Virus record (IMG/VR): IMGVR_UViG_3300043570_002098
Strand: one strand, 5' to 3'
DNA from: a virus
Length of the DNA stretch: 64,000 nucleotides
Under the pieces are notes generated by a model, which made no database searches, was not told the DNA's origin, and saw only the letters and a list, made by a program, of their open reading frames with translations. A program made the translations under genes and the position numbers. How positions within the stretch are numbered: position 1 is the first letter of the stretch; each line of letters starts with the position of its first letter. Of the stretch, positions 25,279 through 31,379 are shown piece by piece.

Positions 25279-25332
25279 TTTGTATATTCGTATATATTTA
25301 TTATCTTTGTAAAATAAGTGGTTCTTTGACAT
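25279..25332 (+). promoter_or_regulatory. Bacteroidota-type promoter plus boxA-like antiterminator for the tRNA operon
   Basis: TTTG(25279)-N19-TATCTTTG(25302), then GTTCTTTGACAT (25321). Confidence 0.75.
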
Positions 25333-25347
25333 ATTGAAATAAAATAA

Positions 25348-25420
25348 GCCTCGTTAGCTCAGTTGGTAGAGCAAGTCATTTGTAATGATTAGGTCTGCGG
25401 TTCAAGTCCGTAACGAGGCT
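25348..25420 (+). tRNA. tRNA-Thr(UGU)
   Basis: Cloverleaf: GCCTCGT/ACGAGGC acceptor, loop TT-TGT-AA, TTCAAGT T-loop. Confidence 0.95.
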
Positions 25421-25422
25421 CA

Positions 25423-25605
25423 ACAGGTGACGACGGTGGTGTGACCCCACTGTCTATGAATCTCAACTATCCGTTTGAATCTAGATGTAGAACGGTGAGA
25501 GTAGAGTTACTATAAGTTGGAGTAATTAACCATTAAGCGAAAAGTAACCTCCGATTCATGAATCAGTCTCGGACATGATGTACATAGATGGTACGAAAAA
25601 CCTGT
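25423..25605 (+). ncRNA. Candidate structured RNA A
   Basis: ACAGGT/ACCTGT closing stem and several nested stems. Confidence 0.5.
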
Positions 25606-25610
25606 AACTT

Positions 25611-25687
25611 TTTGAAACTAACTCAACGAGGACTTTGTTAACCAGTGCATGACACGGAGGTGCAACTTAAGTTGGGTTGGAATCAAA
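25611..25687 (+). ncRNA. Candidate structured RNA B
   Basis: 10-bp stem CTAACTCAAC/GTTGGGTTGG. Confidence 0.4.
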
Positions 25688-25690
25688 CAC

Positions 25691-25763
25691 GCTTCCTTAG
25701 CTCAGTTGGTAGAGCGCAAAACTGTTAATTTTGAAGTCGGGGGATCGTGACCCTCAGGGAGCG
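25691..25763 (+). tRNA. tRNA-Asn(GUU)
   Basis: GCTTCCT/AGGGAGC acceptor, CAAAA-CT-GTT-AA-TTTTG arm; atypical T-loop ATCGTGA. Confidence 0.9.
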
Positions 25764-25769
25764 CAACGT

Positions 25770-25832
25770 GATAATCACTCCACGCAAGTGGTAAGCACCC
25801 GGCAGTAACACCGGGATGGCAATGTGGTTATT
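25770..25832 (+). ncRNA. Candidate structured RNA C (three-way junction)
   Basis: GATAATCAC/GTGGTTATT enclosing CCAC-GCAA-GTGG and CCCGG/CCGGG hairpins. Confidence 0.5.
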
Positions 25833-25856
25833 AAGAGGTAAGGAAAAGACTAAAAT

Positions 25857-25931
25857 GGGAATGTAGCTCAGTTGGTTAGTAGCAGTGCTCTCATAAAGCA
25901 AAGGTCTTTGGTTCAAATCCAAACTTTCCCA
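25857..25931 (+). tRNA. tRNA-CAU (Met or lysidine-modified Ile2)
   Basis: GGGAATG/CTTTCCC acceptor, loop CT-CAT-AA, TTCAAAT T-loop; lacks initiator features. Confidence 0.85.
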
Positions 25932-25935
25932 CACG

Positions 25936-26122
25936 ATTCGGTTAGTCACCGAATAGTATGTCCAATATGATGAGAAATGGTTTGACAACCATATGGAAAC
26001 GTACATTGACGTATAGGAAGAACGTCAGGGGACATCACCCCGACCTCGTGAGGACGAAATGATTATTCCTAACCCGAAAGGGGACAGCTAAGACACCTGT
26101 GAGTTGGATAAATAAAGGTGTC
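25936..26122 (+). ncRNA. Candidate pseudoknotted RNA D
   Basis: Six or more hairpins; loop TAGGAA complementary to TTCCTA and loop GTTGGATA complementary to TGTCCAAT. Confidence 0.55.
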
Positions 26123-26125
26123 AAC

Positions 26126-26211
26126 GGAGAGATGGCAGAGTTGGTCTATCGCGACAGTCTTGAAAACTGTAGACTGTAACAGGTCCGTGGGTTCGAATCC
26201 TACTCTCTCCG
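26126..26211 (+). tRNA. tRNA-Ser(UGA)
   Basis: GGAGAGA/TCTCTCC acceptor, ACAGT-CT-TGA-AA-ACTGT arm, long variable arm, G discriminator. Confidence 0.95.
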
Positions 26212-26223
26212 CTGTAGAGTTTG

Positions 26224-26325
26224 CCCGTGGTAACGGTCTAATGGGGAAACCTTGTAGACTTCTCGCGTCAAAACCCAAAACACTGATCTACTGGTGCTTG
26301 GGCTAAATGTAGAAAAAAAACGGGA
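26224..26325 (+). ncRNA. Candidate structured RNA E
   Basis: CCCGT/ACGGG closing stem, GGTCTA/TAGACT arm with GAAA loop, CCCAA/TTGGG arm. Confidence 0.4.
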
Positions 26326-26333
26326 TCTTTTTT

Positions 26334-26470
26334 AATCACAAATAAAAATGTGAGCTATAATAAAGTAGCCAATTATAAGCCAACATAAAGCTGTTGGATA
26401 CAGACGGAGTAATTAACCAGAGTATAGTGCAACAATTGTGATATTATAACAAATACCCATTTGAGTGATT
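26334..26470 (+). ncRNA. Candidate structured RNA F
   Basis: AATCAC/GTGATT closing stem, CCAACA/TGTTGG hairpin; shares GGAGTAATTAACCA with RNA A. Confidence 0.4.
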
Positions 26471-26474
26471 ATTT

Positions 26475-26546
26475 GTTCTTGTCGACTAAGGGTTAGGTCA
26501 CCTCCCTTTCACGGAGGTAATACGGGTTCGAATCCCGTCGAGAATA
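26475..26546 (+). tRNA. tRNA-Glu(UUC)
   Basis: GTTCTTG/CGAGAAT acceptor, CCTCC-CT-TTC-AC-GGAGG arm, TTCGAAT T-loop. Confidence 0.93.
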
Positions 26547-26584
26547 CATTTTGTTTATTGGAATATTTTTTGTATATTATCATC

Positions 26585-26948: not shown

Positions 26949-27179
26949 ATGTTTATAGGTTATTATGTTATTTGTGTTATTTATTGTTTGTATCAGTTGT
27001 TTAAAAATTTAGACAAAAGATATTCTAACGACCCAACAGGTGGTTCACCAGAATTAGATACTATCATGGTTTTAGTAATGGCTTGGATACTTGCCCCCGT
27101 TGATGTTTCATTGACTTGGATTCGTTGGTATAGGGAAGCTGAAGAAGCAAGAAGAAGACAAGGTAGTAGATTTTTATAA
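26949..27179 (+). CDS. Small membrane protein
   Basis: Two hydrophobic segments, basic tail. Confidence 0.65.
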   Translation: MFIGYYVICVIYCLYQLFKNLDKRYSNDPTGGSPELDTIMVLVMAWILAPVDVSLTWIRWYREAEEARRRQGSRFL

Positions 27180-27345
27180 GATATGGGACTCCGATGGAAG
27201 TCCGCAAGAAGAATAGATGTTTTTCATCCATCAAATATCAATAGTGCTGACTGCTACGGAGATACAAGACAGAAGTGAAGGAACTGTTCCTATTGATTAT
27301 TTTGTTTTTTAACAAAAAATTCCTATATTATTAAAAATAGAAAAT

Positions 27346-27561
27346 ATGAAGTGTTTAAAAAACGTAAAAACGGGAAACATTATTAGAGTTGATGAAAAAC
27401 AAGCCTATCAAATGGCTGGTTCAACATGGAAATACACAACTAAAACAGAATGGAAAGGTATTGTAACTGAATCACCAAAAGAGAATGTTGAAGTTGGACA
27501 TGATATGGGTGGATCATATGAAATTAAAAAAGAAAAAAAATCTAAAAAAGTTTCAAAATAA
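27346..27561 (+). CDS. Hypothetical basic protein
   Basis: 71 aa, preceded by TTTG-N19-TATATTAT. Confidence 0.65.
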   Translation: MKCLKNVKTGNIIRVDEKQAYQMAGSTWKYTTKTEWKGIVTESPKENVEVGHDMGGSYEIKKEKKSKKVSK

Positions 27562-27692
27562 TTTGGAATATTAGAAAACATTTCTTATCTTTGTAAAAGA
27601 AAGGAACAATCAGTAAAAATGTACCTGAAGTGAGAGCGACAAGTTTGCTACACCAAATGGTTTGAAAGTTCTAAAATAGATAGTTCTTTGAA
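27562..27692 (+). promoter_or_regulatory. Bacteroidota-type promoter, leader and boxA-like element for the large RNA
   Basis: TTTG(27562)-N20-TATCTTTG(27586); GTTCTTTGAA at 27683. Confidence 0.7.
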
Positions 27693-27699
27693 TAAAAAT

Positions 27700-28515
27700 A
27701 TTGGCCGTCTATAGTCAATAAAATAAACCATGAAAGTGGGATAAAGTGAGGAGTCCTTGGTTGGGACAAATTGCGGATTCAGTAATGGATCTCGAGTAGA
27801 CAAGTGGAATATCGTTTGACCTGAAGTAGTGAGGGTAACTCCGTAGCGAAATGGTTAGATGACCAAGCAATCCGAGTTGTTTGGTTGAGGTGGGAACACC
27901 AATAAGAATAATCCATAGAGTTCATGTAAGAAGTATAGTTATCCAATTATACAATTGCGTAATTCAATACAATGGTGGTCTTAAAACCGTAGCGTCGTAA
28001 GACGGAAGGTATGACAAAAAACAGGTGGTGCTGTTAGTGTCCTTGACTAAATCCTACCAAGGGTTTAATCTCGAAGGAAACCAAAAATATGGAGGTGGGG
28101 ACACTTCAGAGAGTAGTTTAGTATCGAGTCGTCCAAAAGATGACTTGGCTGGGTGACGAACCACTACTTTCCCAATTCGGAAAACTAAATTTTTATTTTG
28201 GTATAAAAATCATACATAAAAAGAAAAAGTGTTCGTCAGTCATTGGAGACAGGTGACTACTTAGTCGTGAGAGGTTCACGGCCATAAAGGGACTCAATCC
28301 CAATATGATTTTTAAGAAAGTTCTCTAAACCCGCAAGGTTGAAACAGGTCGGCAGATTTGTTGAGTAATAAGTAATAAAAGAGTATCTGATGACTTTAGG
28401 ATTGGTTAATCTAATTGACCGTCATTGATCGGTACGAATCAAAAGTTCGTGGAAAAGGAAAGAAACAAATAATGTTCCTAAGTCGATTGTTAAAACTTGT
28501 ATTCTCAGAGTTTTA
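27700..28515 (+). ncRNA. Large ornate ncRNA, GOLLD-like (~800 nt; ends approximate)
   Basis: ORF-free, raised GC, dense hairpins with GNRA and CAAAA loops, own promoter, boxA and terminator, beside a phage tRNA cluster. Family assignment rests on size and context. Confidence 0.65.
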
Positions 28516-28581
28516 TTTTCTTTGTTTAGAAAAACAAAGTGGTGGTGAATGTATGTAAAACCATACGGCCTATACAAAATT

Positions 28582-28608
28582 AAGTCAGAAGAAATTCTGA
28601 CTTTTTTT
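28582..28608 (+). terminator. Intrinsic terminator
   Basis: AAGTCAGAA-GAAA-TTCTGACTT followed by a T-run. Confidence 0.85.
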
Positions 28609-28624
28609 ATACCTATTTATTGAT

Positions 28625-29218
28625 ATGAACATAATTAAAAAAGAGTTAATAATCGACCACCCAAGTTTTGAAAAAATATCAGACTTTTTTAATTCATATG
28701 AATTAAATGAAAAAAAATTTCCTGTTTCAACAAATGAAACGTTATTTGTTGATCCGTCGGTTAATTCGGGTAATAACCATATCGTAACTATTGAAAAATC
28801 GACATTATTTAATTTTAAAAATGATGAATTAAATAGTTATTTTCATGACTCATTAAATTACATTAAATCAATTTATAATATTAAGATATTATGGTTAATG
28901 ATATATCCACCTAAAAGTCGTTTATTTTTTCATATTGATTATGAACAAAATAGACATTTATTATCATTTAATGAAAACCCAAGATTTTTTAGTTACGAAT
29001 GTGATAAAATAGGAATTATTGACGAGATAAATGAAAAATTAAAAAATTGTAATGATGATATTGATTCGTTCAATCAATATTATTTAAATTTAGATCCAAA
29101 TTGTAAAATAGAATCTTTGGATAAAAATACGGTTTATACCTTTGGAGACTCGGTCCACAATTTTGTAAATGATTCCGATAAATTAAGAGTTAATTTTGTT
29201 TTTGAATTAATGGATTAA
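28625..29218 (+). CDS. 2OG-Fe(II) oxygenase-like (Asp/Asn beta-hydroxylase-like) protein
   Basis: PP......HID and VHNFVN.S...RVNFVF motifs. Confidence 0.6.
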   Translation: MNIIKKELIIDHPSFEKISDFFNSYELNEKKFPVSTNETLFVDPSVNSGNNHIVTIEKSTLFNFKNDELNSYFHDSLNYIKSIYNIKILWLMIYPPKSRLFFHIDYEQNRHLLSFNENPRFFSYECDKIGIIDEINEKLKNCNDDIDSFNQYYLNLDPNCKIESLDKNTVYTFGDSVHNFVNDSDKLRVNFVFELMD

Positions 29219-29257: not shown

Positions 29258-30007
29258 ATGAGATTAGTTTGTATATCAGATACCCACAGCCTTCATCATC
29301 AGATGGAACATCCTTTACCAAAAGGTGATGTGTTAATCCATGCTGGTGATATTTCTAATAAAGGTGGTGAAAAAGATGTTAAAGATTTCATTGATTGGTT
29401 TAAAAACTTAGGTGGTTGGGATCAAAAAATATTCATATCTGGTAATCACGATTATTGTTTTGAGAGGATCAATAAACCATCTTATAAAGGTAATTACGAA
29501 TGGTTAAGTCATTTAATGTCATCTGAAAATTTATCACAATCCGATGTAACATATTTGGAAGATAGTTCATTTAGTATAGAAACCCCCGAATTTGACAGAC
29601 CCATCAAATTTTATGGTAGTCCTTGGCAACCTTGGTTTTATGATTGGGCATTTAACTTACCGAGATTAGGAATTGAATTACAAGAAAAATGGAATATGAT
29701 TCCTGAGGATACGGATGTGTTAATCACGCATAGTCCACCAAATGGATATGGTGATTTAGTTAATAACTGGAGACAACCAAATACAAACGTAGGATGTGAA
29801 TGTCTAATAAATAGAATTGGTGAAATCAATCCATTGGTAAATGTGTTTGGACATATTCATGAAGGTTACGGTGTTCAATACGGAGATAAAACTTTATTTG
29901 TAAATGCATCAATTTGTACCACGGAATATGAACCAACAAATAAACCAATCGTTATTGACTTAGTTGAAATTAACGGAAAAATAAACGCTATGTATGTCGA
30001 AGAATAA
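29258..30007 (+). CDS. Calcineurin-like metallophosphoesterase (MPPED-like)
   Basis: SDTH, HAGD, GNHD, THSPP and GHIHE motifs. Confidence 0.92.
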   Translation: MRLVCISDTHSLHHQMEHPLPKGDVLIHAGDISNKGGEKDVKDFIDWFKNLGGWDQKIFISGNHDYCFERINKPSYKGNYEWLSHLMSSENLSQSDVTYLEDSSFSIETPEFDRPIKFYGSPWQPWFYDWAFNLPRLGIELQEKWNMIPEDTDVLITHSPPNGYGDLVNNWRQPNTNVGCECLINRIGEINPLVNVFGHIHEGYGVQYGDKTLFVNASICTTEYEPTNKPIVIDLVEINGKINAMYVEE

Positions 30008-30982: not shown

Positions 30983-31379
30983 GGGGACGCCTGGATTTGA
31001 CGGACGTTGGTATGGTAAATGGGCACGTAGTCAGACATCATCTATGACTTTAATACACGGTGGTAAAAAACAAAAGACAACGTTTATAACGTTATGGAAG
31101 CTTGTGGTTTAATCACAACTTCTACTGTAGCTGTAGCCTAATAGCACACTTACAAATCGGGTCGACGGACATATAACCTAGGAACAGAAGTCCTTATGGT
31201 GTAACACCACCCAGAGTGTTGGAGCAAACTTGACGGCTCTTGAAAATCCGGTTAGGAACGGTATTGTAAGTTTCCCGATATTAACTTACTATTTGTCTGT
31301 TATGAATAATAGAATAAACGTGTAGTCCATCTATGGTACGGCGGATCGGACAAGGGTTCGACTCCCTTCGTCTCCACCA
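30983..31379 (+). ncRNA. ssrA: tmRNA
   Basis: GGGGACG/CGTCTCC acceptor with G3.U pair, GGATTTGAC D-like loop, GGTTCGACTCC T-arm, encoded ACCA, tag frame 31076-31141; TATATTTG promoter element at 30966. Confidence 0.95.

Follow-up and report, generated by a model that had tools for sequence, protein, structure and literature searches.

A GOLLD RNA gene with predicted transcription signals and an rRNA-like leader box in a Bacteroidota jumbo phage

A full-length gene for a GOLLD RNA lies between a tRNA array and a tmRNA gene in a 64,000-nucleotide stretch of viral DNA (hereafter the window) taken from the IMG/VR record IMGVR_UViG_3300043570_002098. The Rfam GOLLD family (RF02032), whose model spans only the 3' half of GOLLD, matches 28109-28511 on the plus strand over its entire length (model positions 1-416 of 416), scoring 296.9 bits (E = 6e-84) against a gathering score of 150 bits. 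The conserved RNA is about twice as long. Conservation among relatives starts at GGCCG (27703) and stops with the hairpin AAAACU...AGUUUU (28514), giving a plus-strand core of 812 nt (27703-28514) composed of a 5' domain and a 3' domain of 406 nt each (Table 1). A preliminary description of this DNA, made from its letters alone, had proposed a GOLLD-like RNA at 27700-28515; those limits fall within 3 nt of the conserved core, and the full-length Rfam match upholds the assignment. All of the hairpins that it listed are present in the sequence, as is its AT-rich linker (about 28183-28230), and its division of the RNA into two domains with such a linker is the layout of GOLLD known from cryo-EM (PMC12286853). 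The size and plan expected of the family, namely some 800 nt with a conserved 3' domain, a less conserved 5' domain and a variable linker, are all found here. A tRNA was sought inside the linker, as occurs in phage phiCbK, and none is present there in the window.

Coding sequence is sparse in this stretch. The plus strand lacks any open reading frame of 60 or more amino acids from 27562 to 28624, in agreement with the ORF-free gap described previously, and short frames of 43-55 amino acids overlap the region on both strands. A permissive Rfam scan of 27100-28700 (E <= 1) returned GOLLD and a single further match at chance level, and across the window ROOL, OLE, group I and II introns and RNase P gave no match at their gathering scores. 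With no other family above chance in the stretch, these alternative labels, each of which the earlier account had named for checking, can be set aside.

Table 1. Predicted features of the GOLLD locus and the intermolecular (bridge) motifs of the RNA. Coordinates refer to the window.
Feature	Coordinates	Strand	Basis or remarks
Start of tRNA array	25279-25340	+	Promoter TTTG...TTATCTTTG (25279-25309) and box GTTCTTTGACATATTGAAAT (25321-25340); sequence read
Bacteroidota-type promoter (predicted)	27562-27593	+	-33 TTTG (27562-27565), 20-nt spacer, -7 TAtcTTTG (27586-27593)
Leader element with small hairpin AGCGAC...GUUUGCU	27613-27662	+	Between promoter and box
boxA-like leader box GTTCTTTGAATAAAAATATT (GTTCTTTGAA...)	27683-27702	+	Abuts GOLLD core
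GOLLD 5' domain	27703-28108	+	nhmmer, BLAST, covariation, motif likeness to env-38
Hairpin GACCAAGCAA/TTGTTTGGTT	27862-27887
Hairpin GGTG-GGAA-CACC	27889-27900
Hairpin CGTC-GTAA-GACG	27994-28005
Hairpin GAGGTG-GGGA-CACTTC	28092-28107
GOLLD 3' domain	28109-28514	+	RF02032 match; contains unpaired AT-rich linker (about 28174-28238)
Two CAAAA-loop hairpins	near 28126 and near 28433
3' trailer	28521-28567	+	Hairpins 28521-28538 and 28550-28567; kept in close relatives only
Intrinsic terminator (predicted)	28582-28610	+	9-bp stem (28582-28603), then seven T; terminator scan, fold
Bridge B1, GAAA tetraloop			Loop invariant, stem covarying
Bridge B2, GAGGGUAAC			Kept; the motif used for the homolog search
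Bridge B3, GGAA loop			Kept
Bridge B4, kissing loops GGGAU:AUCCC			GAGAU:AUCUC in 5 sequences (covarying)
Bridge B5, UGGU:ACCA	28026-28029 and 28056-28059		Kept
Bridges B6 and B10, two CAAAA loops			Kept
Bridge B8, L21a GC	28333-28334		CG in the huge-phage group, as PMC12286853 reports
Bridge B9, L21b GC	28352-28353		Kept; 19 nt past L21a, as in env-38 (656, 675)

The 5' domain is recognized through its relatives. When the whole gap was used as a BLAST query, two huge phages, both uncultured, were recovered: LR745206 (635 kb) and LR756502 (642 kb). Each matches 27710-27920 and carries a full GOLLD 3' domain some 420 nt downstream of the match, a spacing identical to that in the window. A 16-mer common to all three (GAGGGTAACTCCGTAG, 27831-27846) occurs in 53 IMG/VR loci. 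An nhmmer profile made from these three sequences matches end to end, over 793-842 nt, in 38 loci, of which 32 are distinct (the window and 31 others); many GOLLD homolog loci sit on contigs of 200-480 kb. Since they were gathered by way of an exact 5'-domain 16-mer, the homologs represent a single subfamily, in which that motif is necessarily invariant.

Alignment of the 32 distinct homologs reveals a conserved two-domain secondary structure with strong covariation in both halves. Compensatory change is seen at 138 of 189 predicted pairs, and 98% of pairs are canonical, versus 37-44% in controls in which the 3' partner was moved by one to three columns. In the 5' domain, 98% of 105 pairs are canonical and 73 are compensatory, the slid-partner controls giving 37-41% and 19-33, respectively; the 85 pairs of the 3' domain are 97.7% canonical, with 68 compensatory. 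The 812-nt RNA also folds better than all of 20 shuffled sequences (z = -4.3). Two further pairings were considered. One, in which the flanks AAUAAAA (5') and UUUUAUU (3') would form a closing helix, was rejected since the Rfam model assigns AGUUUU to its final hairpin; the other, between GGCCGU at the 5' end and ACGGCC of the trailer, finds no support from relatives which have GGCGGU. The idea that this is not one RNA gene at all, but plain intergenic DNA, small protein genes or some other known RNA, could appeal to the frames of 43-55 amino acids on the two strands, and is discounted almost completely by the Rfam scan of 27100-28700 and by end-to-end nucleotide conservation with compensatory pairs, the pattern of a structured RNA rather than of coding sequence.

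The signals flanking the core support the view, also put forward in the preliminary description, that GOLLD is here a separate transcription unit with its own predicted promoter, leader and terminator. The arrangement TTTG-N20-TAtcTTTG, which we take to be the promoter form read by the sigma factor of the Bacteroidota, predicts a transcription start near 27600. This pattern occurs at 12 sites in the window versus 5.1 +/- 2.1 in shuffled sequences, none of 100 shuffles reaching 12, and further sites precede the tRNA array (25279-25309) and the ORF at 29258. The promoter block is kept in 13 close relatives, several of which differ in sequence farther upstream. At the other end the terminator is conserved in close relatives and similarity stops right after the T run; the region comprising trailer and terminator (28505-28615) folds with z = -3.0. 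It is this conservation of promoter block and terminator between differing flanks which argues for an independent unit.

Between promoter and box lies a leader element with a small hairpin. It is absent from the closest GOLLD relatives and present in distant GOLLD and tRNA-Met leaders (L019 and L020), standing upstream of the box in every leader that has it. The alignment of the whole 112-nt leader from the window, L019 and L020 has a mean column identity of 83%, and one stem pair changes from C-G to U-A. The order of hairpin and then box resembles the boxB-boxA order of rRNA leaders. Host RNA polymerase would start at the TTTG/TAnnTTTG promoter near 27600, and leader and trailer would subsequently be trimmed off.

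The best structural reference for this RNA is GOLLD env-38 (833 nt), solved by cryo-EM as a 14-mer cage of D7 symmetry (PDB 9MEE; Kretsch et al., PMC12286853). Residues 1-420 of env-38, the counterpart of the window's 5' domain, form the caps and 421-833 the rings, with a disordered linker (497-538) inside the cage (PMC12286853). The env-38 sequence, extracted from the PDF of Supplementary Table 4 of that paper and compared by eye, starts with the motifs of the window's 5' domain; common to both are GGCCGC..., a CGAAAG hairpin, GGAUAAAGUG, GAGGGUAAC, the GGAA loop, GGUGGUGC, ACCA and UAGGGAUA. The comparison is made at the level of motifs, because an env-38-specific 22-mer sought in IMG/VR was not found there. 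Bridge motifs were taken from the intermolecular contacts in Supplementary Table 2 of PMC12286853 and located in the 32-sequence alignment. The window has the motifs of bridges B1-B6 and B8-B10, and across the 32 homologs each is either conserved or covaries (Table 1), so that the sequence basis for cage assembly is retained. Judged by its sequence, then, this copy retains the loop and junction motifs through which the chains of the 14-mer contact one another.

Likeness to env-38 extends to the two-domain plan with an internal, disordered AT-rich linker, to a 5' end of the form GGCCG...GAAA-hairpin...GGAUAAAGUG, and to a phage location beside tRNAs, with tRNA-Met just upstream in many homologs as reported for env-38. 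The two differ in source, a freshwater-type Bacteroidota jumbo phage as opposed to a marine metagenome scaffold, and in length (812 versus 833 nt). The window's RNA also has a shorter B4 contact, the additional hairpin at 27994-28005 and a linker without a tRNA. The differences in B4 and in the additional hairpin give some purchase to the proposal that this is a diverged GOLLD relative which folds alike without forming the 14-mer cage and works as a single chain or in association with proteins. Kissing complementarity at B4 is down to about three possible pairs (GGA:UCC) instead of five in the subclade to which the window belongs, and the extra hairpin CGTC-GTAA-GACG is missing from the majority of homologs. 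Against this, the nine bridge motifs compared out of ten (B1-B6 and B8-B10) are all retained, the symmetric contacts L21a and L21b keep their palindromic dinucleotide and the exact 19-nt spacing, and the domain sizes match those of env-38 (406 + 406 nt versus 420 + 413). An RNA of this kind that does not build a cage is thus most improbable. As a cage-forming GOLLD, the mature RNA would assemble with 13 further copies into a hollow particle.

Other large phage RNAs offer more distant comparisons. LR745206 and LR756502 are homologous to the window over both domains, at approximately 70-74% identity in a single BLAST-aligned segment of the 5' domain (13-20% of the query), and have same-strand tRNAs adjacent. 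LR745206 additionally has a hairpin and, 71 nt ahead of its core, a leader box like that of the window; LR756502 is without the exact box. In both, L21a is CG rather than GC, and the interval from the upstream tRNA to GOLLD shows no promoter of its own. In the Caulobacter phage phiCbK (L198:1743-2229) the GOLLD 3' domain scores only 165 bits and a tRNA-Gly lies within the linker. A permuted tmRNA on the opposite strand of phiCbK precedes GOLLD by about 500 nt, and a promoter of Caulobacter type, TTGACG...GCTAGAAC, was noted some 390 nt upstream. ROOL, which forms an 8-mer cage, is likewise a large phage RNA found near tRNA islands and assembling as RNA only; by contrast with this general likeness, its sequence and fold are unrelated, and the window has no Rfam ROOL match.

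The window belongs to a 91.5-kb IMG/VR virus record which carries one copy of GOLLD and is 27% complete according to CheckV, implying a genome of about 340 kb. The record is a fragment of a jumbo phage with Bacteroidota-type promoters, and its host is a Bacteroidota bacterium, probably Flavobacteriia-like. When ten large neighbouring ORFs were compared with PHROGs only an ATP-dependent protease and a glycosyltransferase received names; phage hallmark genes are thus not confirmed inside the window.

The setting among tRNAs in a phage, remarked on in the earlier account, is confirmed. Five tRNAs (25348-26547) stand 1.2-2.4 kb upstream of GOLLD and a tmRNA (30983-31379, plus strand) 2.5 kb downstream, all on the GOLLD strand. 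A homolog of ribosomal protein bS21 (Pfam PF01165, 43.9 bits) is encoded in the same record at G000:C1:18131-18277, about 6.5 kb before the start of the window. The arrangement recurs: among 45 related loci, all tRNAs and tmRNAs located 3 kb or less from GOLLD share its strand, at least 16 of these loci have a tmRNA within that distance, and in several distant relatives a tRNA begins 11-15 nt past the GOLLD core, in place of the trailer. With five tRNAs and a tmRNA grouped around GOLLD on one strand, and a bS21 encoded by the same phage, we think that the RNA has a role in the takeover of host translation. The tmRNA of the window encodes an unusual tag peptide, GGKKQKTTFITLWKLVV, and a TAtaTTTG promoter element ends approximately 9 nt before its 5' end.

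The box which abuts the GOLLD core is a recurrent element of these phages. In 32 of the 34 distinct homologs with enough flanking sequence, a box of the form G[CT]TCTTT[AG]A, usually about 20 nt long (GTTCTTTGAAnnTATTGAAA), lies 20-112 nt upstream of the core, the background in the same loci being one per 11.5 kb. It occurs before GOLLD in at least seven different leader arrangements. Counting all 101 boxes in the phage loci, 74 are just upstream of a same-strand GOLLD, tRNA or tmRNA: 42 in GOLLD leaders, and a further 32 no more than 300 nt, and mostly 12-98 nt, before a tRNA or tmRNA. About one in three distinct boxes has a TAnnTTTG promoter in the preceding 100 nt, versus 8% expected. The window's own tRNA array starts in this manner, with a box (GTTCTTTGACATATTGAAAT) that ends 8 nt before tRNA-Thr. 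The region upstream of GOLLD in phiCbK was searched and has no such box; the element thus characterizes the present clade of phages and hosts rather than GOLLD as a whole.

The same element is found in the rRNA operons of the presumed host clade. A scan of bacterial genomes for the exact 20-mer gave 121 matches, mostly in Bacteroidota, of which 13 are provably rRNA leaders, lying 83-158 nt before the 16S 27F site. Taken as proof of an rRNA link these matches were rejected, as many are the ends of Bacteroidales insertion sequences or an Ignavibacteria coding stretch. Because this set was so mixed, the claim was tested instead on Flavobacteriales genomes that have a 16S gene, sampled without selection. 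In 12 of 12 operons of this sample, GTTCTTTGA... follows a TAnnTTTG promoter and precedes 16S by 75-135 nt, and a second copy (GTTCTTTGACATATTG...) lies in the 16S-23S spacer, 225-417 nt after 16S, in all seven operons with full flanks. The 20-mer of the window's tRNA array is identical to the spacer box of one Flavobacteriales genome (L185).

In E. coli, rRNA operons have a boxA in both leader and spacer. BoxA is the loading site for NusB-S10 in the rRNA antitermination complex, and it is also found before suhB and CRISPR arrays. Its published forms include GYTCTTTAANA (gamma-proteobacteria), UGCUCUUUAACA (E. coli) and AUGAUCUUUGAAA (B. subtilis), the last of which has been shown to bind B. 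subtilis NusB. The core of the leader box, GTTCTTTGAA, agrees with these consensus forms, which derive from gamma-proteobacteria, E. coli and B. subtilis; a literature search on the box sequence itself yielded nothing useful. Since it occupies the same leader and spacer positions as in E. coli, and its core equals published boxA forms, the box is very probably the boxA equivalent of Bacteroidota rRNA operons.

On the GOLLD transcript, we consider it rather likely that the box serves to load Nus factors in the manner of rRNA antitermination. Like boxA in rRNA operons, the nascent box would recruit NusB-S10 together with the remaining Nus factors, and these would render transcription of the long, untranslated GOLLD resistant to Rho and help the RNA to fold during its synthesis. 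The GOLLD leader is like that of rRNA operons in its core G-Y-U-C-U-U-U-R-A, in the placement of the box early in an untranslated transcript after promoter and hairpin, and in the recurrence of the same box in leader and spacer of the host clade's operons. It differs in that the candidate box stands on a phage non-coding RNA and on tRNA arrays, often repeated and often adjoining the mature RNA. Several boxes lie only 12-15 nt before a tRNA within an array, a departure from the usual picture of one boxA per operon; such within-array boxes resemble a spacer boxA.

These latter features are the strength of the main rival to Nus loading, in which the RNA is GOLLD and the GTTCTTTGA box is a common RNA-processing signal, for instance an endonuclease site which frees stable RNAs, serving host rRNA, phage tRNAs and GOLLD alike. 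Many boxes adjoin the mature 5' end of the downstream RNA: the distance from the start of the box is 12-30 nt for tRNAs and, in the subclade of the window, 20 nt for the GOLLD core. Several also stand between two tRNAs inside arrays. This possibility appears unlikely, if a serious one. In its core the box is identical to the boxA consensus established by experiment in E. coli and B. subtilis, it holds both classic boxA positions of the host rRNA operons, and a distance from box to core that varies from 20 to 112 nt suits co-transcriptional loading better than a cleavage which defines an end.

Nus loading is accordingly the function that we favour for the box, and the locus is best explained as a whole by a GOLLD gene of a Bacteroidota jumbo phage, preceded by an rRNA-type leader and expressed through the steps proposed above, a reading to which we assign a probability of roughly 0.85. 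A wider proposal, that jumbo phages of Bacteroidota copy the leader of the host rRNA operon, taking its promoter type, small hairpin and 20-nt boxA-like box, onto GOLLD, tRNA arrays and some tmRNAs, stands in our judgement at even odds.

GOLLD is among the largest bacterial and phage RNAs without a known function, and the structure of its cage dates only from 2025. As a correct identification of a known family, this single copy adds little to GOLLD; its value lies in delimiting the whole gene with its predicted transcription signals, in the kept cage-contact motifs, and in the rRNA-style leader as a testable lead. The leader seems to be the new part: in the library of papers searched, none joins GOLLD with boxA, NusB, antitermination or Rho-dependent termination. 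Handles on the production and purpose of GOLLD are offered by the commonness of full-length GOLLDs in jumbo and huge phages, by their one-strand islands with tRNAs and tmRNA, and by the host rRNA-operon box in the leaders of this clade. If the wider proposal of a copied host leader is true, GOLLD would be made and folded by the host rRNA antitermination and chaperone complex, and its biogenesis, perhaps its function, would be tied to the machinery which makes ribosomes. It could then compete for Nus factors or join in a remodelling of translation along with the tRNAs, tmRNA and bS21. The box makes a clear and cheap prediction, that of Nus-factor binding and Rho resistance.

Two minor observations concern the surroundings of the gene and the wider occurrence of the box. 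A GC-rich hairpin, GGACTCCGATGGAAGTCC, without an Rfam match, lies at 27186-27203 in the 165-nt gap between the ORFs at 26949-27179 and 27346-27561. The same 20-nt box is furthermore carried by a multi-copy Bacteroidales insertion sequence with a DDE_Tnp_1 + DUF4372 transposase (L059:6546-7805, L123, L102, L119 and many contig ends among L057-L176), where it stands about 88 nt before the transposase start, just inside the terminal repeat.
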